A model generated the notes under the pieces. It did not search any database, was not told where the DNA came from, and saw only the letters and a program-made list of their open reading frames with translations. Both the position numbers and the translations under genes were made by a program. Shown piece by piece: positions 7,614-60,497 of a stretch of DNA of 64,000 nt; the first letter of the stretch is position 1; each line of letters opens with the position of its first letter. The DNA is from Escherichia phage E20. The stretch is taken from the sequence record OP745616; one strand, 5' to 3'.

Positions 7614-7811
7614 TTGGAGGTAGTCAACATGCCAGACATCTATGATGTTATTACTAAAACCGTACTGATAGTTTTATCTGCTATTGTGATACTCACTATA
7701 GTTAACGCCCACAAATCCAAGTTTGCTTATTGCTACTATGGAGCATACTCTGCCGGATGTTTTGTATTAGCCGGTTGGATAGCTTACTGGATTTACCACA
7801 TCAACAACTAG
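7614..7811 (+). CDS. Small membrane protein (65 aa)
   Basis: Hydrophobic segments; bracketed by two terminators. Confidence 0.45.
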   Translation: MEVVNMPDIYDVITKTVLIVLSAIVILTIVNAHKSKFAYCYYGAYSAGCFVLAGWIAYWIYHINN

Positions 7812-8856: not shown

Positions 8857-9117
8857 ATGCGTAAAATTGCTATTGGATTCGGTTGTAGTGCTGTTACGGG
8901 CCTTATCGCTTATGCTGCCCACGTAATCTTGGGTATGTCACTGATTGACCTGACACCGGTCATGGTAGCTGCTATCGCAGCCCCACTATTTGGTATCGTA
9001 GTCTTTGACTTTAAAGCATTCAGCCGTGCTGCTGCTGAAGTAAGCAATCTAATCCTGGGCCGACTTGGACATCGTTCCTTTGGTTCTGGTAGTCTATGCC
9101 GACCTCATGGTCTGTAA
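8857..9117 (+). CDS. Membrane protein (86 aa)
   Basis: Two hydrophobic helices. Confidence 0.45.
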   Translation: MRKIAIGFGCSAVTGLIAYAAHVILGMSLIDLTPVMVAAIAAPLFGIVVFDFKAFSRAAAEVSNLILGRLGHRSFGSGSLCRPHGL

Positions 9118-9178: not shown

Positions 9179-9367
9179 ATGTATAAAGAGATTGCATTCT
9201 TCTCGTTCTTGTTAGGAGGGTTAATTGGTGCAGGAATTGTAGCTATTTCTAATACCTACTTTGGTTCTACTCCAAACTCTGTAACACAAACCCACAAGCA
9301 TGAATGTGAATTGAATATCCCTCGTAATCAAAACTGCGTAATGCAGTTCGTACCGGAGAAGAAATGA
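9179..9367 (+). CDS. Small membrane protein (62 aa; ORF track start 9146 lies inside the terminator)
   Basis: ATG at 9179 with GGAG RBS; TM helix FFSFLLGGLIGAGIVAI. Confidence 0.4.
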   Translation: MYKEIAFFSFLLGGLIGAGIVAISNTYFGSTPNSVTQTHKHECELNIPRNQNCVMQFVPEKK

Positions 9368-9549: not shown

Positions 9550-9876
9550 ATGAAAACTTTAATTGCTGTTGCTGTAGTAGCTTTATCAGTTCTGTCATTC
9601 GGTGCTCAAGCATCTAGTCGTGCAACCTTGCTGGAAGCTGCTGCTGATTACAAAGCTAATAATACAAACTTTGTGAACCAGGGTTACTTCATGGGCATGG
9701 TTACCATGGGGGTGGAAGCAGGAAAGAACTGTGTACCTGACGATATGAAGTTAGGGCACATTTTTGACAGAGTGGCTTCTATTATTCTGTATGACCGAAA
9801 GGTTAATGCAATGAAAGTACCTTCAGACATGGTTCTGTTAGCGATTGATACAGCGTATCCCTGCGTTAAATCTTAA
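9550..9876 (+). CDS. Secreted/periplasmic protein with cleavable signal peptide (108 aa)
   Basis: N-terminal MKTLIAVAVVALSVLSFGAQA|SS signal-peptidase I pattern. Confidence 0.5.
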   Translation: MKTLIAVAVVALSVLSFGAQASSRATLLEAAADYKANNTNFVNQGYFMGMVTMGVEAGKNCVPDDMKLGHIFDRVASIILYDRKVNAMKVPSDMVLLAIDTAYPCVKS

Positions 9877-9910: not shown

Positions 9911-10963
9911 ATGGCGAGCATTGACTCCTTGACTGTATGTAATACACGCCAAGCCCGTAACTTTATTATCCGTGCCTTACAAGCAGGTAACGTACCGTTC
10001 CTGACTTCATCGCCGGGCATGGGTAAATCTGCAATTATCCGTTCTGTTGCAGAAGAATTTGGCATGAAGCTGATTGACCATCGTCTATCTACTTCTGCCC
10101 CGGAAGACTTATCTGGTCTACCATTCCGTAATGGTGACCGTGCAGAGTTTATCCCTTTCGCTGACTTATTCCCTATTGAGGGGGATGAAGTACCGGAAGG
10201 TTATAATGGCTGGCTCCTGTTCCTTGATGAGTTCAACTCAGCTAAGAAAGAAGTAGTAGCTGCTGCATACAAACTGATTCTAGACCGTATGACTGGACAG
10301 AAGAAACTACATCCTAATGTGATGATTATCTGTGCCGGTAACAAAGCTACTGACCGTGCTATCGTTAACCCACTGGGTACTGCAATGCAGTCCCGTGTTG
10401 TCCACTTCGAAATGGAACTTAACTTCGACATTTTTGTTGAAGACGTAATGATTCCGCAAGAATGGGATGAGCGTCTGGTTGCATTCTTACATGCTAATCC
10501 AGGCTATCTGCATGACTTCGACCCTGCCCATAAGAACAAAACATTCTGTTGTCCTCGTACCTGGGACTTTGTTAACAAAGACCTCAAGAACCGACCAGAA
10601 GGTGCTCTGCCTGATGAAGATTCTATCTACTATGCAGGCCACGTTACTGCCGGTAAAGCTACAGAATTTGTTCAGTTCACCCAGGTATATAATCGTATGA
10701 TTACGATTGAGAAGGTAGTCAAAGACCCATTGGGCTGTGCACTGCCTGAAGATAATAACCTGTGTTGGGCTACTGTTAACCATCTGGCTAACAAGACTAC
10801 TGAAGATAACTTCGTTGATGTACTTAAGTACATTGAACGATTCAAAACGTTCACCCATAAGATTCTGTACTTCCGTACAGCGGGTAAAGCATTACCAGAA
10901 ATTCAGGCTACTCCTGAATGGCGTAAAGCTGCTGCCAACATCTCTCGTTACATTCACGGATAA
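9911..10963 (+). CDS. MoxR-like AAA+ ATPase (N4 gp24-like), 350 aa
   Basis: Walker A SPGMGKS, Walker B LLFLDEFN, sensor region. Confidence 0.75.
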   Translation: MASIDSLTVCNTRQARNFIIRALQAGNVPFLTSSPGMGKSAIIRSVAEEFGMKLIDHRLSTSAPEDLSGLPFRNGDRAEFIPFADLFPIEGDEVPEGYNGWLLFLDEFNSAKKEVVAAAYKLILDRMTGQKKLHPNVMIICAGNKATDRAIVNPLGTAMQSRVVHFEMELNFDIFVEDVMIPQEWDERLVAFLHANPGYLHDFDPAHKNKTFCCPRTWDFVNKDLKNRPEGALPDEDSIYYAGHVTAGKATEFVQFTQVYNRMITIEKVVKDPLGCALPEDNNLCWATVNHLANKTTEDNFVDVLKYIERFKTFTHKILYFRTAGKALPEIQATPEWRKAAANISRYIHG

Positions 10964-10970
10964 TCACAAC

Positions 10971-12146
10971 ATGAACCAGATACCTCAGCACACACTTAGT
11001 GATGAACAACTCATGCGCGAGTATGACCGTATTCAGGCCCAAGCTTTCCTAGGCAAGTCTGCTGCGTTTTTTGGTTCATTGCTGTGTAGTCTTAAGTTCT
11101 CATGGAATCGTGAGGATTGCCCCACTGCATGTACTGACGGAATAGAACTCCATTTCAACCCAGACTTCTTTGTCTGGATGTGCCCTGATGCAAGAGAAAC
11201 AGTGCTAATGCACGAACTCTGGCATGTGGCATATCTACATGGCATCCGTTGTGGAAGCCGTGACCCGGAAGTCTGGAACCAGGCATGTGACCACTTCATT
11301 AACCTTCAGTTAGAAGAAGACGGTTACAAGTTCACTGGTATCGACAAAGGCATTTGCAAAGACCCTCAATATAAAGGATGGGTTGAAGAAGACATCTACG
11401 ATGACCTGATGAAGAACCCTCAGAAAAGGCAGAAGCCGTCAGGGGGTGCTGGAGCAGGTCTTGCTGGCGACATGAAAGCTCCCTCTTCGGGGCAGTCCCA
11501 GGGTGCTGTTGTCAACAACGTAGTACGTGCAATGCAAAGCCAGAAGATGGCTGGTGGAATAATGCCCGGTAAAGGTGCTGGTCGTATGGAAGAGGTTATT
11601 ACCCAATTCCTTAAACCAGTAGTTCCATGGCAGGAAGTCCTGCTGAACTTCTTTACCGACATTGATGACACACACTATACGTGGGCCAGACCTAACCGTC
11701 GTTTTACTGACATCTATCTACCATCACTGGAAGATGATGAAGGTCGTTTACGACACCTAGCTTACTTTGAGGATGTATCTGGTTCTATTAGTAATTCTGA
11801 CTCTCTGCGTTTTAACTCAGAGGTTGCCTACGTTAAGAGCCAGTTCAATCCTAAGAAGATGACCCTTATTACCTTCGACGATATTATCCAAGAAGAAATA
11901 GACATCACTGAAGAAGATACTTTTGAAGAGATTAAGATTACTGGTCGTGGTGGTACAAACCTTGAACCAGTGCGTGAATGGATTATTAAGAATAAGCCAA
12001 CCGCTGCAATCATATTCTCCGATATGTATGTTCGTCCTATGGAAGAATTACCATTTGATATCCCTATCATCTGGTGTGTTCTGAATAATCCCAATGCTAC
12101 CGTACCTTTTGGGGAGGTAGTTCATATCCCTAAAGGAATGAAATAA
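10971..12146 (+). CDS. vWA domain protein with N-terminal HExxH metal-binding module (N4 gp25-like), 391 aa
   Basis: HELWH motif; MIDAS DxSGS (FEDVSGSIS); ATG at 10971 directly after the ATPase stop (ORF track 10737 is an in-frame extension overlapping the ATPase gene). Confidence 0.6.
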   Translation: MNQIPQHTLSDEQLMREYDRIQAQAFLGKSAAFFGSLLCSLKFSWNREDCPTACTDGIELHFNPDFFVWMCPDARETVLMHELWHVAYLHGIRCGSRDPEVWNQACDHFINLQLEEDGYKFTGIDKGICKDPQYKGWVEEDIYDDLMKNPQKRQKPSGGAGAGLAGDMKAPSSGQSQGAVVNNVVRAMQSQKMAGGIMPGKGAGRMEEVITQFLKPVVPWQEVLLNFFTDIDDTHYTWARPNRRFTDIYLPSLEDDEGRLRHLAYFEDVSGSISNSDSLRFNSEVAYVKSQFNPKKMTLITFDDIIQEEIDITEEDTFEEIKITGRGGTNLEPVREWIIKNKPTAAIIFSDMYVRPMEELPFDIPIIWCVLNNPNATVPFGEVVHIPKGMK

Positions 12147-12682: not shown

Positions 12683-12868
12683 ATGTCTGTATTTCAAGTA
12701 ACTCCTGCTGACAGTACCCAACGTAAAACTATTGTTGCAACTAACGTAGTAGATGTAGATGAAACTCCGGCTGGTGCTGTAATTCATCTCATTGATGGGC
12801 GAACTGTAACTGTAAAAGAAAGCTACCGTTCGGTACGCGGTTACATTCGTAAAGCTTTAGCTGAGTAA
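12683..12868 (+). CDS. Hypothetical protein (61 aa)
   Basis: ORF. Confidence 0.4.
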   Translation: MSVFQVTPADSTQRKTIVATNVVDVDETPAGAVIHLIDGRTVTVKESYRSVRGYIRKALAE

Positions 12869-12880
12869 GTAGCTGCCTAA

Positions 12881-12907
12881 ATAGCCCAGCATAGTTGGGC
12901 TATTTGT
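12881..12907 (+). terminator. Possible terminator hairpin
   Basis: TAGCCCA-GCATAGT-TGGGCTA then TTTG; short T-run. Confidence 0.4.
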
Positions 12908-13202
12908 GAAGAAACTAACTCAACCCCACATAGGAACTATCATGGAATCTTTAGCAGCAATCCTTATTCTGTTATTTGCACTAGCTGTATACCTTATCCC
13001 TACTATTATTGCTTTTGCACGAGGCCATGCCTCTAAGTGGGGAATTGGTGTACTCAATATTGTATTAGGCTGGTCTTTGGTCTTCTGGGTAGTAGCACTG
13101 ATTTGGTCACTGTCTAATAAAGGACAGTCTCAGACTACAATCGTTAACGTTGGTAGTGGGAACCAATACAACGTGTCTCAAACGAGCCAGTCTGATAAGT
13201 AA
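12906..13202 (+). CDS. Superinfection immunity (Imm-like) membrane protein, 98 aa
   Basis: YLIPTIIAFARGHASKWGIGVLNIVLGWSLVFWVVALIWSL closely matches the Imm/superinfection-immunity family signature; two TM helices. Confidence 0.7.
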   Translation: MKKLTQPHIGTIMESLAAILILLFALAVYLIPTIIAFARGHASKWGIGVLNIVLGWSLVFWVVALIWSLSNKGQSQTTIVNVGSGNQYNVSQTSQSDK

Positions 13203-13276
13203 CTAACCTAAGCATCATTGCATAGTGGTGCTTGTGGAAGTTACTTTCAGCTCATTGCTTATCCATCTCCTAATCC

Positions 13277-13305
13277 AAGCCCACCTAACCCGTGGGCTTT
13301 TTTAA
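13277..13305 (+). terminator. Rho-independent terminator
   Basis: AAGCCCAC-CTAACC-CGTGGGCTT then TTTTT. Confidence 0.65.
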
Positions 13306-13319
13306 TTACAGGTACTCTT

Positions 13320-13703
13320 ATGTCAAACAGACAAAATGGTAAGTCTATCTTATATGGACTGGACTTAAGTAAACTGGAACAAACTGCAATGCTTACTTTA
13401 GGTAAAACTATACATGACCAAGTAGAGAATGAAATAGAATCAGATGTTTATGCAGCAATGCAAGCTGCTATTCTGAAAGGATGGACTAGTAGATCATTTA
13501 ATGTTTTCCCATACATCCCTCCTGAACCTCATCTGAAATCTAAGGTAGACCGTATCATAGATAAGTTCTGGCTTAGTCCTTGCTATGACGAAATGCATCT
13601 TTACCTGGCTCAAATACAAAAGAATCCACGTACTAAGGATTTGTTCAAAGGCAAGAGCACTACCCATCATTACCCTTGGTATAGAAGAGGTAGTAAATAC
13701 TAA
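13320..13703 (+). CDS. Hypothetical protein (127 aa; ORF track start 13218 spans the terminator)
   Basis: In-frame ATG at 13320 downstream of terminator. Confidence 0.45.
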   Translation: MSNRQNGKSILYGLDLSKLEQTAMLTLGKTIHDQVENEIESDVYAAMQAAILKGWTSRSFNVFPYIPPEPHLKSKVDRIIDKFWLSPCYDEMHLYLAQIQKNPRTKDLFKGKSTTHHYPWYRRGSKY

Positions 13704-14146: not shown

Positions 14147-15090
14147 TGATTAAGGCAACTGTCATTGCAGATTCCGTTCATCATGCAACGGGTACTCGTA
14201 TTACTACCTTTGAATTGGTCTATCCCCGATTCATTCACAGTGAGTTTATGACCCACCGTGTATTCAACCGAAATGCTTCAAGTAGTCGTGCTATCCCTAC
14301 TTCTAAGTTCATCGAACAAGTTCGTAATGAACCAGTGATGCCAAGTCACTGGGGCAAGAACCAGAAGGGTATGCAGGCATTTGAGGAACTGTCCGAAGAC
14401 CAACGTAGTGATGCAATCTTTATCTGGAACCAGGCTGCGTCAAGTGCTGCTACCTATGCGGAAATGCTTCGTCGTGGACAAGTTCATAAGCAGATTGTTA
14501 ACCGTATTCTGGAACCATTCACACATATCCGTGTAGTGGTAACTTCAACTAGCTGGGCTAATTTCTATGGCTTACGTGACCATGAAGATGCCCAACCAGA
14601 GATTCGTGAATTAGCTCAAGCAATGCGTAAGGCTCATAATGAAAGCACTCCAAGAGCACTCCCACAAGGGGAATGGCATTTACCGTATATTGCTCATATT
14701 GATCGTGTCGGGGCTTATAATTACTGCAAACATCAGCGAATTACTCGTGATGAACCAAGTAGTGAAGAAGTGTATGGCTTACTTCTTAAGGTAAGTGCTG
14801 CTCGTTGTGCTCGTGCTTCTTACAACAATTTTGAAGGCCGTCCTTCTACTATTGAAGAAGACTTAGGATTGTTTGCTAAGTTAGTAGAGAACCAACCTAT
14901 TCATGCATCCCCTACAGAACACCAGGCAACTCCTATGCTGTTCGGTGATAAGTTCATTAACAACCAGAACCCATTAACCTGGGAACAGGGTGTTACTTCA
15001 ATGGATCGTGAAGGTAATCTGTATTCAGGTAACCTGTTAGATTTCATCCAATTCCGTAAACTAATCCCCGGAGAAACAATTACAGAATGA
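14146..15090 (+). CDS. thyX: FAD-dependent thymidylate synthase ThyX-like, 314 aa
   Basis: ThyX-like HR-x7-S motif (THRVFNRNASSSR) and AQPEIRELA motif. Confidence 0.6.
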   Translation: MIKATVIADSVHHATGTRITTFELVYPRFIHSEFMTHRVFNRNASSSRAIPTSKFIEQVRNEPVMPSHWGKNQKGMQAFEELSEDQRSDAIFIWNQAASSAATYAEMLRRGQVHKQIVNRILEPFTHIRVVVTSTSWANFYGLRDHEDAQPEIRELAQAMRKAHNESTPRALPQGEWHLPYIAHIDRVGAYNYCKHQRITRDEPSSEEVYGLLLKVSAARCARASYNNFEGRPSTIEEDLGLFAKLVENQPIHASPTEHQATPMLFGDKFINNQNPLTWEQGVTSMDREGNLYSGNLLDFIQFRKLIPGETITE

Positions 15091-15323
15091 AACGTTTAGC
15101 TATCCAAGCCCTGTTTATAAGTATCATCCTGGTTCTGGAATTTGTATTTGCACTGCATGGTGCACAGAGCCTAGAAGAGATGTTCTTCGTAGTAGCCCGT
15201 TTTTCTGCATGTGTTCTTAGCTTATGGTGTGTGTATTACTATGCACGCGATTATGTAGCCATCAAGGAACAGGATGATGCTAAGGAACGTCTATTACAAT
15301 TCGTAGAACAGAATCGTAAGTAA
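15087..15323 (+). CDS. Small membrane protein (78 aa)
   Basis: Hydrophobic helices. Confidence 0.45.
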   Translation: MKRLAIQALFISIILVLEFVFALHGAQSLEEMFFVVARFSACVLSLWCVYYYARDYVAIKEQDDAKERLLQFVEQNRK

Positions 15324-32389: not shown

Positions 32390-33394
32390 TCTGGTAGGTG
32401 GCTCAGAAGCTGCTGCTAGGTGTGGTAGTGTTTATAGTCCTGATGCTACTACTGGTCAGGATTATAGACGTGTCGGCTCCATACATAGCTTTTATCATCA
32501 CTGTCATTATCCTGTGGAAATGCAGTGGTAAACACGGTGGTGACAAGCCGCCAGAATAACAACAACCGAACCAGTGGATTGGAATACTCTCCCCAGTCCA
32601 TTGGTTCAATCGGGGTTACTATGAACAAATTTACTATTCACTGGCTCAATGGAAAGGTTAGTTCTTTCATGGGTGGAGAACCTGCTGAAGGAAGCATTGA
32701 AAAAGAGTAGTTAATATCGTGAAGGGTTCTGTTAGAATCTTTTGAGATAGGAACTCCTATCATAACCTTTCTTAACTTAATCTTTGCCGTATGGCACTGA
32801 CGCTAGGGGTGGCCCCCCATCCGTCAGACAGACTATTTTAAGAATGGGTTATCTCAGAAAATGTAAAGCAACATTCGGGTTAATCAATGGCCTCTCCTAT
32901 AGGGGCCATTTCTGAATCTTAGGCTATATCCCAAAGGTTAGTATCTTTGGGATAAGGCTTCAGATCCCTTATCAAACTAACCGCTCATGTTGAGCATATT
33001 AATTAACCCAGCCCACTAAGGGGGCGGGAGTTTAATGCCGGTAAGCATAAGCCTATCCGACTACAACATCGAACTGTTAGGTCTTACATGCAACATAGGG
33101 TATAAAGGGAGGATTCGTCCCCTCCCTCCTATTATGAACTACCGGAGAGTGCATTAGTTGATTAGCTGTGGAAGGTAGGCCGATGTCCACAAGCGTGGCC
33201 CAGAGCTAGTGTACTCCCCGATAGTTTTCGTAGCGATTATGCGGTTTTTTAGAAACGAACCAATAACATAAATGCAAACGAAGAAGCGTATCTGATGGTC
33301 GCCTAACAGCGTAACCTCAGTCAGGAGTGAGTCGTCCTGATTATCAAACGACCATGGAGTTCTCCCGTCCATGTATTAGAAACGGGGGGCCAAT

Positions 33395-33518
33395 TACCAG
33401 TTGCACGAGATGGCTTGACATGCTCAAGTTTGGACTAAGTGTGACACCGCTAGATTGGAGGGCTGCTGCGGTAAGCTATAGACTCCAACCGGAGGTTCGA
33501 ATCCTTCACTGGTAACCA
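33395..33518 (+). ncRNA. tRNA-like 3' domain (T-arm GGAGG-TTCGAAT-CCTTC, acceptor 3' strand, encoded ACCA); 5' boundary unresolved
   Basis: Canonical T-arm at 33491-33507 followed by ACTGGTA-A-CCA; only perfect acceptor complement TACCAGT is 120 nt upstream at 33395-33401. Confidence 0.25.
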
Positions 33519-33522
33519 ATCA

Positions 33523-33630
33523 GAAGTAGCACTGCATAGAACGCGAAAAGGTTCAGCGACGTTAGCCATACGGTATTGTAAGGTTCGAGTCCTTACCTAT
33601 GAGCAGTGACGACTGCAACAGTGCTACTTC
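33523..33630 (+). ncRNA. Structured element: 12-nt inverted repeat GAAGTAGCACTG/CAGTGCTACTTC enclosing a T-arm-like hairpin (TAAGG-TTCGAGT-CCTTA)
   Basis: Inverted repeat at 33523-33534 and 33619-33630; T-arm-like at 33579-33595; no acceptor stem could be paired. Confidence 0.25.
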
Positions 33631-33646
33631 TAATTGGAATAAATAT

Positions 33647-33724
33647 TGTGGGTGAGCATACGGTTATGCTACAGGCTTCCACACCTGTATGTGAAGTGAG
33701 GTTCAACTCCTCCGCCTGCAACCA
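33647..33724 (+). tRNA. tRNA-like gene with encoded CCA; anticodon loop non-canonical by hand fold (8-nt loop CTTCCACA)
   Basis: Acceptor TGTGGGT/GCCTGCA (7 bp, 3 G-U), D-arm GCAT..ATGC, anticodon stem ACAGG/CCTGT, T-arm TGAGG-TTCAACT-CCTCC, ACCA 3' end. Confidence 0.4.
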
Positions 33725-34291
33725 AACAATGGGGGTAAGTCGTAAATACGACGGCGTAAGTACCAGATGAAACCTCTGGACGCCCCTACCATATTTGAGA
33801 TGTAACAGTTAAATCCGTACCCGGAAGTGCTATTCTAGATACGCTGCCAATGTGGAGACGGTAAGGCTGTACAGGACTCGGACTCCCATCTCAAACCAAA
33901 GTCGCCAGGTACTTATGGCAAACGGGTAGTAACGAACTAGTCATTCGTCAAACGCCCACCTAATTATGAGTCAGCAAGAACGCCTTCACTTAAACTTAAA
34001 CAAAAAAGCTTAACGCAATAATTATGTAGGGGTATGTAAGGATTGCGAAGAAGGAGCCAGTTAGAGCCTGGCATGACTCACCTAATATGAGCACGTCTAA
34101 TCATCCTGGTTAAGCAGTAGCTAATTACTTATTGCTGTAAAATGAACTACTTAATATAGTTCTTCAGATACAGAGTAACTTGGTTGGATGGGGTAGGTAT
34201 CCTGCCCCTGCTCATTCTATTATAGGTAGCTCGTACTAGTTACGAGGCAGTCAATCTGTGGCAGTGTAAGGCTGCCCTACCCTTTCATTAA

Positions 34292-34364
34292 TACCCGGTA
34301 GGCTTAGTGGCAAAGCCCCACTAGTAAACTAACTAGGACGCAGGTTCGAATCCTGCCCGGGTAA
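34292..34364 (+). tRNA. tRNA-like gene; canonical acceptor, D and T arms, but anticodon loop folds as 6 nt
   Basis: Perfect 7-bp acceptor TACCCGG/CCGGGTA, D-arm GGCT-TAGTGGCAA-AGCC, T-arm GCAGG-TTCGAAT-CCTGC; anticodon stem CTAGT/ACTAG with loop AAACTA. Confidence 0.45.
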
Positions 34365-34373
34365 TCATACTAT

Positions 34374-34447
34374 GTCCACTTAGCTTAGACTGGGAAAGCA
34401 ACCGACTAATAATCGGAAGGTCACTGGTTCAAATCCAGTAGTGGACA
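34374..34447 (+). tRNA. tRNA, anticodon AAT by hand fold (would read Ile codons if A34 modified); needs tRNAscan confirmation
   Basis: Perfect 7-bp acceptor GTCCACT/AGTGGAC, D-arm GCTT-AGACTGGGA-AAGC, anticodon arm ACCGA-CTAATAA-TCGGA (C32 U33 ... A37 A38), T-arm ACTGG-TTCAAAT-CCAGT. Confidence 0.55.
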
Positions 34448-34683
34448 CCCATTCAGCAGTAACATAGTCCTGATTGCATAGCACTCTAAAGACAACACTG
34501 GTAAGACAGTCCAGTGGCTGCTAATGTATTGTTATTCCCCTCGACGGGAATTTCGCTAGTGAAGGTAACACTTAAAAATCCAAACCTACGTCTTACTACT
34601 ATCGGGCTATCAACCCACGGTCGCTTAACCCACTAGTGGTAGTAGTTTGACGGCCTGCCTCGTTGACTGCGTTAAAGTCACTA

Positions 34684-34720
34684 AGTCCCCTGGAGCCGTC
34701 ACTCTGGGGGACTTTTTTAT
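34684..34720 (+). terminator. Rho-independent terminator closing the tRNA-like region
   Basis: GTCCCC ... GGGGGAC stem then TTTTTTATTT. Confidence 0.6.
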
Positions 34721-34877
34721 TTGAGAACTACTTATTGGACGATTCATATGATTGACCTAATCTTAACCCCGTATGCCTATGAGGTAACGGATAACCGAGG
34801 ACGTAAGTCTTTGGTGTTTGCAGGTAGCGTAGCCTATAACAACGCAGTCATGTTTAAATACAAACTCAAACCACTCT

Positions 34878-35270
34878 ATGAGGCTAATAATGGCAACAGT
34901 AAGTAAAGAATCAATCGAAGCTAAGATTAAGAGCGTCTACTATTTCAATGGTGCTGATGCAGTAAAGTCTGCCTTCGTTAACCCTTCTGCACTTCCGGCA
35001 GATGATTTGACTAACCTGGGCCTAGTAACATACTGTATTATCATTCTGGAAAATGACTTCAAAGTTGAAGGTGTATCTGCCTGTGTTGACCCAGCTATCT
35101 ATGATGAGCAGAAAGGCCGTCAGTATGCATATGAGAATGCATTCAATAAGATTTGGGAATTGGAGGGTTACCTCCTACGTCAGGCACTGCATGAGAAAGA
35201 GGAGACTGCTAAGGCTCTGGCTTCCTTTGCAGAAAACAACACCTGTGATGGTGGTGGTTGCACCATTTAA
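34878..35270 (+). CDS. Hypothetical protein (130 aa)
   Basis: ORF after tRNA-region terminator. Confidence 0.45.
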   Translation: MRLIMATVSKESIEAKIKSVYYFNGADAVKSAFVNPSALPADDLTNLGLVTYCIIILENDFKVEGVSACVDPAIYDEQKGRQYAYENAFNKIWELEGYLLRQALHEKEETAKALASFAENNTCDGGGCTI

Positions 35271-35388
35271 CAAACAGGTATATGGTAGTTTTTACCGAAA
35301 GGTACTGAACTACCCGACATGTGGTAAGGCTCATGAAGCCAAAACAAAACAAGCCCTCCTAGTGAGGGCTTTATCATTTGAGGTAGTT

Positions 35389-35889
35389 ATGTCAGAAGAA
35401 ATTAAAGTTCACTTCACCAACTACATTGGAACCAAGTGTGTAAATGGTTTCAAGATGAACAAGGAAACATATTGCAAACTTCGTGGATGGGATGTGCCTG
35501 CTAATGAGGACCCGTTAGAAGTAGGTTACTTAGTAGAATACCCGGATTCTAAACCTAACCATGAGCAATTCCGTGGTTATATTAGCTGGTCACCAAGGGC
35601 TGCATTTGAAGCTGCATATTGTGATGTAGACAAAGGCTGCACGTTTGGTCATGCCGTAGAGCTTCTTAAAACAGGCTTCAAACTAGCCCGTAAAGGCTGG
35701 AACGGTAAGGGAATGTACATTGAGTATGTTGCCGCTGAAGAATGGAACAGCAGTAGCCTAGAGCGTCCAGGATTTGCCGATGAACTGAAGCCTCGACCGT
35801 GGATTGGTATCAAAACTGCTGATGACCAGTTTATGCCTTGGGTTCCTTCTCAATCGGATGTATTAGCCGAAGATTGGATAATTCTGTAG
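35389..35889 (+). CDS. DUF2829-like phage protein (KGWNGKG motif), 166 aa
   Basis: LARKGWNGKGMYIEY motif; ATG 35389 follows a hairpin at 35351-35372 (ORF track 35053 is an extension overlapping the upstream gene). Confidence 0.45.
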   Translation: MSEEIKVHFTNYIGTKCVNGFKMNKETYCKLRGWDVPANEDPLEVGYLVEYPDSKPNHEQFRGYISWSPRAAFEAAYCDVDKGCTFGHAVELLKTGFKLARKGWNGKGMYIEYVAAEEWNSSSLERPGFADELKPRPWIGIKTADDQFMPWVPSQSDVLAEDWIIL

Positions 35890-35898
35890 GAAACTATT

Positions 35899-36177
35899 AT
35901 GACGCAAGTATCTATTACCTCTGTTGTTCGTGAAGCCATTCTCAACAATACAGTCCGTACTTATTCATTCGATGAAATCGCAGAGAAGCTGGGAGTAACC
36001 CGTTACGTAGCTAAGAAACTTTACTTCTCTTTCCTGTGGTTCCCTACGGAAGAAACATTACAGAAGATAAAAGAGACTGGTAAATTACCTAGTGAAGGGC
36101 GTAAGTCTAAAATGTGGGAAACATATGACAAAATCATTAGCAGCACATCAAGTACGGGTACTAGTAGAAAGAGATAA
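35899..36177 (+). CDS. Hypothetical protein (92 aa)
   Basis: ORF. Confidence 0.45.
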   Translation: MTQVSITSVVREAILNNTVRTYSFDEIAEKLGVTRYVAKKLYFSFLWFPTEETLQKIKETGKLPSEGRKSKMWETYDKIISSTSSTGTSRKR

Positions 36178-36335
36178 TCTCAAAGAGAAGTATGAAGCTT
36201 TGGGTACTTTCTTACTCAGTCACAAGTCCCGTGAAATTGAGCCAGAAGATAAGTACCTACTTGGTTTACAGCATCAAGCTATGGGTTCTTATTTGTATGT
36301 TCTTAATAAGCGAATTGAAAGATTCTAGGAGCAGT

Positions 36336-36629
36336 ATGGAACTCTTTAAGAAAGGGCAGCTTATACCAAAGCGTATCGGTGGATTGCATGTCCATCGTAA
36401 AGCAAGACACCGTTTAGTCTTTGGTTGTGATGTACAAATTGATGGTAATAATTGGATTGCCATACCTGATACTGGTAACACAATGATTCACTGCAAGAAG
36501 TTAGGTATTCGTAGAAACAATGGTACTTATCAAAGTGTACATGCTGATTTTGTAGATATTCATTTTGAAGCTAACAAAATTGATTATGTAATCAAGACTG
36601 AACGAAAAATTCTTGTAGTTAAGAAATAA
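36336..36629 (+). CDS. Hypothetical protein (97 aa from ATG 36336; ORF track 36192)
   Basis: Last plus-strand ORF before convergent junction. Confidence 0.4.
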   Translation: MELFKKGQLIPKRIGGLHVHRKARHRLVFGCDVQIDGNNWIAIPDTGNTMIHCKKLGIRRNNGTYQSVHADFVDIHFEANKIDYVIKTERKILVVKK

Positions 36630-39600: not shown

Positions 39601-42600
39601 AATATTGTTAGCACCCATGATGGTATCGAACTTCTGCTGAGCATAGTAACGGTCAGCTGGGTTAGTGCTATCCGGGTCAGCCATGAATGCTTCAACTGTC
39701 AGGTTCTTAGTAACGTGTGCATAGTATTCCTGTGCCCGAGAAAGAGCAGCCGGACTAATAGCAGCTTCAATAGCCAAAGCAGCAACGATATTAGTGAACA
39801 GGCGTTGTTCCTGCATATTCATAGTAAAGCCATGAGCCTGAACATCACGGGTTACTTTAGTTGCATTCACTACTGCATCAGAGAACTTACCTTTACGAAT
39901 TACTTGCTGTACTGGTTCAGAACCAATGTAGTTAGTAATCAGTTTGTCAAAAGTCTGTCCCAACTCTTCCAGACGGATATTGTCACCATACGCCTTGTTA
40001 TGGAACAAGGTAGTGTCTTTGGATACAGCAGCCGTAGGAGCCTGTCCACGCATAACTACAGAAGAGTTAAACAGCAAGCCGGAGAACATATCATCTGCAT
40101 TAGCAGGTGCTTTCTTACGACCAAATACCAGACGCTTGATTGCCTCATACACAGACTGAACCATAGTTTTCAATGCAGTGGTTTTCTTCTGCTTACCAAT
40201 CAGTTCACGGTTGGTTAAACCCCAAGCCATATACTCATTCAGTGCAGCAGCTTTAGCCATTGCAGGTTCAATAAAGCCATTAGACAAGTGACCGTTAATG
40301 GTATTGAGAGCATCAGCATATGCTTCACGTACTGCCGGGGATTCATTCTTAACATCCAGAGTACGGAACTGGTTCATCAGGTCTTCAATATTCTGAACTG
40401 CTTCATTAGGAGTACCCTCATAGTGAGCCAGTACAGATTCAAAAGTAGAAGCATGTACTAATTCATGAACCAGAGTCTCTAAGGAAGGGGTAACTAAGTA
40501 GATGGTCTTATCATCAAAGTTAGTCCAGCCATATGCATTACCAGCTTCGGCAGCTTCAATATCTTCTGGTGCTGGGCGAGTAATGTTCTTCTCAATAGCA
40601 TAAGCATCCAGTTGAGCAGGAGTACCGTAAACAACCTTGTAGTCTTTAGCAGCAAGGGATTTCTGTACTTCTTTCAATACTGCTTGCTGTTCAGGAGACA
40701 TCTCTTTAGCCAGCCTAGTGATAGCAGTATTGGACAGCATACGTACACCAGACTTCAGTACACGACCAACCTGTTCCATTGCTGGTACTTCTTTAACAGG
40801 TACTTCTTTCACTGGTTCTGCTTTAGCAGCACGTACTGCATCGCGACGCTTGTTTAATTCAGCATCAAACAGTTCGTTCAGCTTAGCTACTTGCTGGTCT
40901 ACAGTCAGACCTTCCAGAGAGATTTTACCGTTGTTCACATAAGGAGCACCCACAGCAGCCATCTGATCAACAGTGGTCTGTACCTGGTTCATTACTTTGT
41001 GGCGAATATCTACACCCAGAGCAATGTTACGCAGGTTACGTTCAATAAGGTTAACACCGGAATTCTTAATCATATCAATCTTATACTGCCTGTCTCCCTC
41101 AACACGACTGATATGAGAAAGCTGTTCAAAATCCAAAGCAGAACGGGCAATGTCATCAATTGTCTTATCCGACAACTTATTAAAGTCTACGTTCTTCATG
41201 AACTTAGAGAAGGAGTCATAAACATTCTTGATAGGATTACCCTGCCAAGAAGTATATACAGCCTCATTAGCTTTACGGCTTGCATCAGTGATGTCATTGA
41301 TACCAATGTTCATACCATCAAAGATTTTCAGGGTATTCTTCGGTGCACCTTTCATAGTAGAAAGGGTCTGCATCATCATGCCATCACCAGTACCAATGGT
41401 CATAAATGGAATACCTGCAACACCTGCTTGTGAAGGAGCATAGACGCTCATTGGCACACGCATACGGTCATCTAAGTTGGTAGCCAGTACTTGGTTAGCA
41501 ACATCAGTATTCTCACTACCAGCAATGTAGAAAGTTTGTGAGCCAGTCTCAATCATTGGAGCCAGTGGAGATAATGATTCCTGGATTTCATTAAGTTCTT
41601 TCTGCGTTAAGAAATCGCCCTTCTTCCAGGTTGGGTCTTTTTCTTTTTCTGCTAGTTTAGCCTGTACTGCTTGTTGGAACATATCCTGCAATACTAAAGA
41701 CTGAATTTGAGTAGCCTTCTGCAAGTTCTCAGTGGAGTGCATCAGACCTTCACCAACAGTGAACCGGATACTTTGTCTCATTGGTTCAACGAAGAAGTGC
41801 AACATATTCTCTTGTAAGTTCTTAAGGGCATCACCAGATACAGTAAACTCCTGGGGATCTAACTCACCAGTCAGAGCACCATCTACCTCCTTAATAAATA
41901 ACTTACCTTTACGCTTGGCTGGAATTTTACCAGTCAGTGCTTCCATAGAAGTAAGGAAAGTATCCAGCATAGCCTGAGCATCCGCTTCAGACGCAGCCTC
42001 CTTACCAAACATTGCCATAGCTGGGGAAATGCTAGGGTCAGCAGCACGTGCTTGCAGAACGTCACTGAGGCGTTCATAGATGGTATCAGTAATTGCACTA
42101 ACCATCTTGCCAGCAATACCACGAGCACCAGAACCATAGATGGTAATGGTCAGTGGGTTTTTAGCTATACCACGTTTCAGGTCCAGAGTACCGTCTTCAT
42201 TCAGGTTAAAGTCTTTAATGAACAGGTCCATTAACTTCTGGAGATGATTCATCTGGCTCATAATCGGAACGTTGTTACGGTAAGCACTACGTAATTCATT
42301 TAGATAGAATTGCAAACTATTGGTAGATGCTTCATATAAGTCAATGCTGTCATCATATGAATGATGTTCATTCATAGTCTTACCGGCTTTACCGAAGAAC
42401 AAGCCACCCTTAGCAGTATTCTTAATCCAATTTTGGGTGAACTTACCACCAGTCATTAATACCATTGCGTTGATTGGGCCGTTGGTTACACCATCAGCTT
42501 CGACATACAGTGGGGTATTAAAGTTGGCACGGTCATCGCTGTTCAGGTAACGGGCATATTCCATCAGAGCCATGAGAGCTACAAAGGATTTGTTATCACC

Positions 42601-59380: not shown

Positions 59381-59908
59381 CTATTCAAAAAGTTTACGGT
59401 CAGCCTGAATTTGTTTACCCAACTCAATTAGTTGGTTGTCACGGAGTCTAACAGTTGCCCGGAGTTCTTCAACCAAACGTCTGCCTTCTTCAAGACTGTT
59501 GTCGAGTCTGGCTGCATGGCTTGCAAGACTTCTGCACTCAAGGGTTCCGGCTTCGGCTTGACGTTTATATACCGATGCTCGTCTTTCAGACTGTTGCATC
59601 CGGCTGTCGTAATCACTGCTAACGCGAGCAAGCTCGCTTGCGTAATTACTCTCAGCCGTCTGCAACCGGGAAGTGAGTAACCCGACTTCATAACTATGGT
59701 TTCTTTGGAGAGCATTGTATTTGTCCTGTAGTTTTTGTATTGCCTTCAGGTCTTCAACCTTTTGGACATCCCACTTCTTTTGAACAGTAGACTGCCCATT
59801 GGAATTGCCCCAAAAGTAAATGGTGGCCCCGAGGACCACCACCAGAAGATAAGGCCAACCTTTAGAGATTAGCATCTTCATTACATGCCTCCAGTGGTAC
59901 ATTACCAA
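59381..59908 (-). CDS. Rz-like i-spanin (N-terminal TM + periplasmic coiled coil), 175 aa; start may be an internal Met
   Basis: TM helix [16 protein letters not shown] then charged coiled-coil; directly downstream of endolysin; contains embedded lipoprotein ORF. Confidence 0.6.
59428..59691 (-). CDS. Rz1-like o-spanin lipoprotein embedded in Rz in an alternative frame, about 88 aa
   Basis: Signal peptide with lipobox AVITTAG|C, then proline-rich KPKPEP segment; entirely inside Rz gene. Confidence 0.55.
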   Translation of the reverse strand: MKSGYSLPGCRRLRVITQASLLALAVITTAGCNSLKDEHRYINVKPKPEPLSAEVLQAMQPDSTTVLKKADVWLKNSGQLLDSVTTN

Positions 59909-60497
59909 TTCGGTTAGCTACCCAACCATACGTAAAGTCTGGCATGTTCAATGAGGTGTAGTGGTTCAGCTGTTTAGCATCAAGTAACTTAATCACTACC
60001 TGACATGCTGCAACTTTGCCTCGTTTTTTCTGTAATGCTTTATATGCATTAACAGTACCTGCACCGACTTTACCATCAACTTGTATTTTAGGGTAGTCTT
60101 TGCCATCACGGGACATTTCATTAAGAGATTGCTGCAACCACTTAGCTGGTCTGGTTACACCGGTATTAACACCAGCATCAACCAGTTTATGTGTTACAGC
60201 AGGAGATATATCAGCGAAGGCTACGAAGTTAGGCTTAAGTACGTAGTCATCAATGTATATCTCAGCAGCCATCTCTTTCGATAAACCCTTCATGGAACCA
60301 TTCCAACCATACTCCGTAGCCAGAACTTCTTTATGAGACTTAGCTACTGATTGGGTAATACCATGATTAGTTTCCCCACCTGGGTCACGGGGATTGTTTA
60401 CGTACCCTCCTTCCATATAAAACACTGCCCCCAGAATAGCAGCGACAACTCCTCCCACTGCACCACCTTTTGCAGCAAGTTTCTGTTTAGCTTTCAT
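59862..60497 (-). CDS. GH108-family N-acetylmuramidase endolysin with N-terminal membrane anchor (SAR-type candidate), 211 aa
   Basis: EGGYVNNPRDPGGETNHGIT catalytic signature; N-terminal GGAVGGVVAAILGAVF hydrophobic helix; C-terminal peptidoglycan-binding-like region. Confidence 0.8.
   Translation of the reverse strand: MKAKQKLAAKGGAVGGVVAAILGAVFYMEGGYVNNPRDPGGETNHGITQSVAKSHKEVLATEYGWNGSMKGLSKEMAAEIYIDDYVLKPNFVAFADISPAVTHKLVDAGVNTGVTRPAKWLQQSLNEMSRDGKDYPKIQVDGKVGAGTVNAYKALQKKRGKVAACQVVIKLLDAKQLNHYTSLNMPDFTYGWVANRIGNVPLEACNEDANL

Follow-up and report, generated by a model that had tools for sequence, protein, structure and literature searches.

An Imm-family gene of Escherichia phage E20 lies in a stem-loop-bounded accessory cassette and carries exchangeable tail alleles

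Introduction

Does a podophage related to N4 carry a counterpart of the T4 superinfection immunity protein Imm, and would such a protein keep the genomes of later phages out of the infected cell? The question is raised by a small gene of Escherichia phage E20 (sequence record OP745616), from which we analyzed a stretch of 64,000 nucleotides (nt), here called the window; positions are counted from its first letter. Matching a 5-kb stretch around the gene to 80 phage records placed the window in the family Schitoviridae, genus Gamaleyavirus (G7C-like, N4-related podophages). The closest record was Escherichia phage vB_Eco_F22 (F22), at 97% identity, followed by PhAPEC7, Bas96, G7C, and others. 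A preliminary description, made from the letters alone, had reported at 12906-13202 an Imm-like protein of 98 amino acids (aa) with two transmembrane (TM) segments. Our analysis makes membership in the Imm_superinfect family close to certain. Because of the homology with T4 Imm, we infer, with a probability of roughly 0.6, that the product is an inner-membrane protein that excludes later phage genomes.

Results

Family assignment

The gene and its conserved domain are located as follows.

12942..13202, + strand: imm-like gene of 86 codons and a stop codon, orthologous to G7C gp27.1, F22_0032, and PhAPEC5_25.
12987..13112, + strand: Imm_superinfect domain, residues 16-57 of the 86-aa protein, YLIPTIIAFARGHASKWGIGVLNIVLGWSLVFWVVALIWSL.

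The motifs on which the first assignment relied (IIAFARGH, LNIVLGW, and VVALIW) are present in the frame +3 open reading frame (ORF) spanning 12906..13202. The Pfam search that had been proposed as a check returned PF14373 (Imm_superinfect) with 61.1 bits, against a gathering cut-off of 27.9 (expectation value [E], 9e-17). In the 98-aa reading, the match takes in residues 28-69 and spans profile positions 1-42/42. Against this model, T4 Imm has a score of 58.2 bits. A second profile, PHROG 1039 ("immunity to superinfection"), matched with an E of 2e-34. Chance cannot account for matches of this strength. By BLASTP, the protein aligned with T4 Imm over 69 aa with 32% identity and 57% positives (E, 2e-10), residue 1 being aligned to residue 1. 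Higher identities, of 47 to 52%, were found at the annotated imm genes of T4-like phages such as Merlin and Mineola. Five residues (Y17, P20, R27, I35, and W55) are unchanged in homologues as far as T4 Imm. The assignment to an Imm-type superinfection immunity family therefore holds, both by a profile score above the gathering threshold and by direct alignment with T4 Imm.

The call is correct but ordinary, as the homology has been known as an annotation since the G7C genome. G7C gp27.1 is annotated as a "putative membrane immunity protein" similar to JS98 Imm, and more than 30 other GenBank records say membrane or superinfection immunity protein. The F22 protein, 100% identical to that of E20, is a "superinfection immunity protein", and the same or an equivalent label is found in F22, PhAPEC5, PhAPEC7, Bas96, Moo19, and the RefSeq copies. 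The homologue in EC1-UPM is labeled in the same or an equivalent way (PMC3853248). What the present analysis adds is a corrected start, evidence of selection, a repeat-bounded cassette with natural empty sites, unlinked tail alleles, and a Tai4-like fold for a secreted protein encoded nearby.

Start codon and selection

We aligned the locus with that of 10 relatives. The ATG at 12942 and a Shine-Dalgarno (SD) sequence, AGGA at 12932-12935 (six bases 5' of the ATG), were invariant. The GTG at 12906, from which the 98-aa protein had been read, is GAG in 1 of the 10 relatives, has no SD sequence, and closes the 3' arm of a conserved hairpin (12878-12906), supplying its last three bases. Homologues in the database, 85 in all, range from 67 to 96 aa in length, mostly 86 or 80 aa, and begin with ME(S); the GenBank annotations of G7C and F22 give a gene of 261 nt. 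Because the ATG and its SD sequence are invariant, the GTG is variable and lies in a hairpin, and both homologue lengths and existing annotations agree, we place the start at ATG 12942 and reject GTG 12906. The ORF of the preliminary description is thus real, and its start and length were off by 12 codons, the true product being 86 aa long.

12906..12941, + strand: noncoding 5' leader (the former 12-codon GTG extension), which holds AGGA 12932-12935; GAG replaces GTG in one relative.

Ten genomes were used for the analysis of selection. In the core of the gene (codons 1-61), the synonymous value (pS) was 0.191 and the nonsynonymous value (pN) was 0.019, a ratio of 0.10; pairwise differences amounted to 401 synonymous versus 119 nonsynonymous. 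The imm-like gene is real and under purifying selection. A spurious or decaying ORF, hydrophobic by chance, might be argued from the shortness of the gene, its initial reading from the wrong start codon, and a truncated 67-aa version in phage Bp4, but the invariant SD sequence and ATG and an intact gene in 53 GenBank phage records of the G7C-like group speak against it, and the selection and profile evidence rules it out, so that we give it next to no credence.

Membrane architecture

A Kyte-Doolittle scan of the 86-aa protein identified two hydrophobic segments, residues 1-28 and 33-59. An AlphaFold2 (AF2) model, built from 21 homologues with T4 Imm left out, predicted a helix at 2-26, a five-residue loop, a helix at 32-58, and an unstructured tail at 59-86. 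The scan and the model agree in predicting the two TM segments of the preliminary description.

12948..13019, + strand: predicted TM helix 1, approximately residues 3-26; Kyte-Doolittle 19-residue mean up to 2.79; AF2 helices 2-17 and 19-26.
13035..13115, + strand: predicted TM helix 2, approximately residues 32-58; Kyte-Doolittle mean up to 2.26; AF2 helix 32-58.

The model is of moderate confidence, with a predicted local distance difference test (pLDDT) score of 69.7 overall and 43 to 55 in the tail. A search of PDB sequences for a solved relative matched only a designed helical protein, with no stretch above the threshold alone. In the model, helix 1 is kinked at the invariant P20. The two helices are joined by the loop RGHASK (residues 27-32), the most basic part of the protein. 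Taken together, the prediction is of a membrane hairpin of two helices followed by a polar, disordered tail. The positive-inside rule predicts a cytoplasmic position for the basic loop, and both termini, with the variable tail, would be periplasmic.

Two alleles of the C-terminal tail

Past a conserved SNKG motif, the orthologues carry one of two different tails. Allele A, ...QSQTTIVNVGSGNQYNVSQTSQSDK, the form carried by E20, gives an 86-aa protein in 5/10 genomes; allele B, ...QNQVTNVTVVQTNGGSKAE, gives an 80-aa protein in the other 5/10.

13116..13199, + strand: polar C-terminal tail rich in Q, S, N, and T, allele A, residues 59-86, ...QSQTTIVNVGSGNQYNVSQTSQSDK.
L015-L032, positions 1-261: loci of the tail-allele sample, on the reverse strand in L021-L023 and L030-L032.

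A and B are 34% identical in nucleotide sequence over the tail, compared with 93% over the core and 92 to 95% over the flanks. Within allele A, the tail has a pN of 0 and a pS of 0.156. Each tail allele is under purifying selection and is swapped between phages as a very short cassette. In GenBank, the long form occurs in about 11 distinct phages and the short form in about 25; about half of the sampled orthologue records have the 80-aa tail allele or a hybrid. Hybrid tails are carried by nithesis, ZQ2, and ShWW44, and Bp4 has the truncated form mentioned above.

We then looked for co-variation of the tail allele with other genes, using nine allele A and nine allele B genomes. The stretch from imm to 50 kb downstream was divided into 400-nt tiles (about 105), and divergence between alleles was compared with divergence within alleles by permutation of labels; the comparison left out the left 13 kb, the tail-fiber genes at the right end, and the nonalignable tailspike. 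The allele was associated with the imm tile only (P = 0.002), and the adjoining tile gave a P value of 0.82. This lack of linkage shows the fine mosaicism of G7C-like genomes.

Two side observations were made along this stretch. The tile at 40942-41342, in the virion RNA polymerase gene (− strand), had a divergence of 0.145 between and 0.123 within alleles (P = 0.024), as chance gives among about 105 tiles. The region of tRNA genes and small ORFs at about 32500-36600, 5' of the virion RNA polymerase gene, could be aligned in just 1 to 10 of 19 related genomes and is the most variable stretch from imm to the tailspike; ORFs in that region are automatically labeled anti-CRISPR in the relative Mimir124.

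A cassette bounded by stem-loops

Two hairpins and a terminator were found around the gene.

12878..12906, + strand: hairpin 1, directly 3' of the gp27 homologue's stop codon; stem of 13 bp and loop of 3 nt; predicted free energy (dG) of -18.1 kcal/mol, z of -3.4.
13207..13237, + strand: hairpin 2, right after the imm stop codon; dG of -13.9 kcal/mol; a diverged copy of hairpin 1.
13277..13305, + strand: intrinsic terminator, an 8-bp GC-rich stem (13277-13299) followed by T6; dG of -12.5 kcal/mol, z of -4.6.

Among the relatives, the stem of hairpin 1 is conserved and its loop is variable; it is annotated as a "stem_loop" in G7C. The terminator, which precedes the gp28 homologue (ATG 13320), is invariant in the relatives and is annotated in PhAPEC5 and PhAPEC7. 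Together with their flanks, the hairpins make up a direct repeat, imperfect and about 60 bp long, that brackets imm (about 12861-12922 and 13192-13255), each copy beginning at a stop codon. The local alignment score of the two copies was 40, compared with 15.5 ± 3.4 (maximum, 31) in 500 shuffles. A scan of the cassette for sigma-70 promoters found none above the expectation from shuffled sequences; N4-type promoters were outside the coverage of that scan.

Some relatives show the site without the gene. In N4, gp27 and gp28 are adjacent and imm is absent, and the close relatives phi G17 and Moonfish lack both imm and gp28.

L013 1470-1650 and L014 1432-1612: empty-site stretches used for the phi G17 and Moonfish comparison.

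The phi G17 and Moonfish site has one hybrid hairpin: its left half is similar to hairpin 1, and on the right it is flanked by the sequence found 3' of hairpin 2. Recombination between the two repeats would leave such a single hairpin. The imm gene is an accessory cassette, and the empty sites suggest that it is gained or lost by recombination between the stem-loops. Mobile cassettes bounded by stem-loops have been described in T4-type phages, and the imm cassette is reminiscent of them.

Gene neighborhood

The genes around imm come in the order known from N4: RNA polymerase II subunits, capsid decoration protein, gp24, gp25, dCTP deaminase (gp26), gp27, the imm-like gene, gp28, gp29, ThyX (gp30), and rIIA/rIIB. 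The imm-like gene is on the rightward strand, 3' of the RNA polymerase II subunit genes and inside the nucleotide-metabolism block, which N4 nomenclature would call the middle region.

The interval between gp27 and gp29 is a small hot spot of gene content. The gp28 homologue (13320-13703, + strand) is present in E20, F22, PhAPEC5, and PhAPEC7 and absent from G7C, phi G17, and Moonfish. The program-called ORF at this place, 13218..13703 with a TTG start, is too long, PHROG 12812 covering only its residues 35-161. The gp27 homologue (12683-12868, + strand; 61 aa) has a weak, subthreshold Pfam match to FlbD (16.7 bits; cut-off, 24.7), and its label in the GenBank records of some relatives, "flagellar and swarming motility protein", is probably an overannotation. 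Farther to the left, the program-called ORF 10737-12146 (+ strand) has a GTG start and overlaps the end of the gp24 homologue. In relatives, the gene annotated there is a gp25 homologue of 1,176 nt ("VWA-like domain-containing protein" in RefSeq), which puts the true start about 230 nt further in.

Other small membrane and secreted proteins

The preliminary description had also proposed that the imm-like gene, four small membrane ORFs, and a signal-peptide protein make up an envelope-directed exclusion toolkit. These ORFs are real, and they are hydrophobic or have a signal peptide; a role in exclusion is not established for them. The four small membrane ORFs (7614-7811, 8857-9117, 9179-9367, and 15087-15323) matched only conserved PHROGs of unknown function. 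They had no match among PADLOC and NCBIfam models and none in Pfam above cut-off, 15087-15323 having a weak subthreshold Pfam match. They are spread over 8 kb among genes for RNA polymerase, capsid decoration, and nucleotide metabolism. One of them, 8857-9117 (+ strand), is an 86-aa hydrophobic ORF that matches PHROG 26763 over its full length and lies between the capsid decoration gene and the gp17.1 homologue. Its counterpart is annotated in F22; G7C and PhAPEC7 have none annotated, and their intergenic gap there is only about 105 nt. ORF 8857-9117 looks like another small accessory insertion.

The signal-peptide protein was analyzed further.

9550..9876, + strand: signal-peptide protein, 108 aa, G7C gp17.3 homologue; Tai4/Rap1a fold predicted.

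Its N terminus has the shape of a Sec-type signal, MKTLIAVAVVALSVLSFGAQA|SS, with a hydrophobic segment at 1-23, and two cysteines are invariant; export to the periplasm is predicted. The protein scored 18.9 bits against Pfam Rap1a (PF18602), below the cut-off of 27.7 (E, 0.0022). No PDB sequence matched a profile made from 20 homologues, and no model of PADLOC or NCBIfam matched the protein. The AF2 model has a pLDDT of 85.4, and the top seven Foldseek hits are all Tai4/Rap1a, with probabilities of 0.77 to 0.99 and E values of 0.2 to 1.3, which are not significant. In one GenBank record, a homologue is labeled "Tai4".

Tai4/Rap1a proteins are periplasmic inhibitors of the type VI-secreted peptidoglycan amidases Tae4/Ssp1 (PMC3695027, PMC3852654). 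The phage protein differs from them in its low sequence identity (9 to 15%) and in being encoded by a lytic phage with no cognate amidase gene nearby. Around it lie the gp24 ATPase homologue and small ORFs without a known function. We looked for a partner encoded by the phage, either an amidase or an NlpC/P60 protein, and rejected the idea, since Pfam gave no match in gp51-55 or gp57, in the tailspike, or in the spanin region; nor did the virion proteins gp51-55 contain any Pfam lysozyme or amidase domain. The endolysin is a GH108 muramidase. In phi G17, the Tai4-like gene is present and imm is absent. The predicted Tai4/Rap1a fold lends some substance to the theme of envelope protection and is not evidence for phage exclusion.

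Discussion

A possible mode of action

If the imm-like protein acts as T4 Imm does, it would be made soon after infection, in the early or middle period, and inserted in the cytoplasmic membrane. There it would keep the genome of a later phage from crossing that membrane, so that the secondary DNA would stay outside and the first phage would keep the cell. The periplasmic tail could meet the incoming ejection machinery. The excluded phages could be of the phage's own kind or T-even competitors on the same host. As proposed for T4, a secondary benefit might be less envelope damage from secondary adsorption and support for the superinfection-triggered lysis inhibition of N4.

This scheme is modeled on T4, in which Imm and Sp (Spackle) confer superinfection exclusion (PMC7677548). 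T4 Imm has two TM domains, resides in the cytoplasmic membrane, and interferes with DNA translocation, probably needing a partner (PMC9952470). The likeness between T4 Imm (NP_049660; 83 aa), the founding member of PF14373, and the E20 protein extends over several features: the domain matches over the full profile, the sequences are collinear from Met1, and the sizes are the same. In both, two hydrophobic helices are separated by a short basic loop (RGHASK in E20, RGSKST in T4), and a short polar tail contains a β-prone hydrophobic run (TTIVNV and VIII, respectively). Both genes belong to virulent coliphages and lie outside the structural and lysis modules. There are also differences. T4 is a T-even myophage and E20 is a podophage of the Schitoviridae. 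The T4 gene lies between genes 42 and 43 together with imm.1, whereas that of E20 lies between gp27 and gp28 homologues, near dCTP deaminase and ThyX. The tail of the E20 protein is rich in Q, S, N, and T and occurs in swapped alleles. Unlike T4, with its pair of Imm and Spackle, E20 gave no Pfam match to Spackle (gp61.3) among the small ORFs scanned.

Other homologues fill in the picture. The orthologues of Gamaleyavirus and Moovirus (G7C gp27.1, F22_0032, PhAPEC5_25, PhAPEC7_26, Bas96_0062, Moo19 gp41, and others) occupy the same locus and are 77 to 100% identical over the aligned part. Beyond the N4-like group, the closest are Imm homologues of Acinetobacter myophages (P711, AbP2, WCHABP1, and others), which have 62 to 64% identity in the core and share the SNKG that comes after helix 2; they differ in host genus and phage type and have shorter tails. 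The small membrane proteins SieA of P22, Sim of P1, and lactococcal Sie2009, by which a resident phage stops the translocation of incoming DNA (PMC9952470), are similar in the activity proposed here. We detected no sequence relationship with them, and they are encoded by prophages, whereas E20 is virulent.

Points against exclusion

Several points weigh against a function in exclusion. It is carried over from one characterized protein at just 32% identity. The PF14373-type family is huge, with 8,265 cluster representatives (50% identity) of 60 to 350 aa at an E of ≤1e-3, and T4 Imm is the only member that we know to have been tested for function; belonging to the family therefore says little about phenotype. 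The protein has no match among the models of PADLOC or NCBIfam. N4-like podophages deliver their genomes very differently from T-even phages, co-injecting a virion RNA polymerase of 3,500 residues, and the topology given above is a prediction; the experimental paper on T4 Imm by Lu et al. (1993) has "unusual membrane topology" in its title. T-even phages are the reported targets of T4 Imm (PMC9952470). The gene is dispensable, since N4, phi G17, and Moonfish live without it. Moreover, if the tail recognized the ejection machinery of its own phage, its alleles should co-vary with the ejection genes. From imm to 50 kb downstream, we found no such co-variation in the virion RNA polymerase, gp51-54, capsid, portal, or lysis genes; with the alleles unlinked over 50 kb, nothing here supports the idea that the tail determines specificity by matching the ejection proteins of its own phage. 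In the searchable literature, no exclusion phenotype is reported for any N4-like phage or its Imm.

Alternative functions

Some of these points also bear on an alternative in which the protein is a generic PF14373 membrane module with a role outside phage-phage conflict, the "immunity" label being merely inherited. Host takeover, membrane permeability or ion balance, and the anchoring of another phage protein are conceivable roles. A family in which many representatives have extra domains suggests a diversity beyond one function; the lack of a matching PADLOC defense-system model and the accessory status of the gene within the genus fit as well. Set against this are the collinearity with T4 Imm over the whole length (86 versus 83 aa), the shared Y..P...A..RG basic loop and W-rich second helix, the location in an early/middle gene block of a virulent phage, as in T4, and the imm annotation of the nearest relatives beyond the genus, which are phage genes too. 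We consider this alternative unlikely, while giving it some weight.

A protein that protects the envelope or adjusts the timing of lysis, with no block on the entry of secondary genomes, seems a somewhat poorer candidate still. It could stabilize the membrane against secondary adsorptions or modulate the holin/antiholin balance and so prolong lysis inhibition. T4 imm mutants are partly defective in lysis inhibition, with shortened lysis-inhibited latent periods, and Imm "reportedly molecularly resembles a holin" and has been proposed to resist secondary traumatization (PMC6832632). N4, the other coliphage known for lysis inhibition, shows it under superinfection, a link drawn by the authors who described it (bioRxiv 10.1101/2025.11.12.688109). 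In the window, rIIA/rIIB homologues lie a few kilobases downstream of imm, by the F22 annotation, and the protein is small with two predicted TM segments, like holins and antiholins. However, the lysis cassette is 46 kb away, with the endolysin at 59862-60497, and imm is missing from N4, the phage whose lysis inhibition was described. For the sole family member that has been studied, the activity with the best documentation is, besides, the exclusion of entering DNA. Exclusion of later genomes is the reading that we retain.

A broader arrangement can be imagined, in which G7C-like phages carry two layers of envelope protection paralleling Imm and Spackle, namely, an Imm with allelic tails and a periplasmic protein of Tai4/Rap1a fold. 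We regard it as doubtful. In such an arrangement, the exchanged periplasmic tail cassettes of Imm would possibly set which incoming phages are excluded, and the Tai4-fold protein could shield the peptidoglycan from a neighbor's type VI effector or from the wall-degrading enzyme of a competing phage. To our knowledge, no lytic phage has been described that gives its host immunity to type VI attack.

Implications

T4 Imm is still mechanistically obscure. If tested, an Imm homologue in a phage with a wholly different genome-delivery machine would show whether the family has a common target, for example the membrane or a host factor, or a phage-specific one. The tail alleles, the relatives without imm (N4, phi G17, and Moonfish), and the cassette structure are ready-made controls for such work. 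More unusual is the Tai4-like protein of the periplasm, with which the phage might shield its host against type VI amidases.

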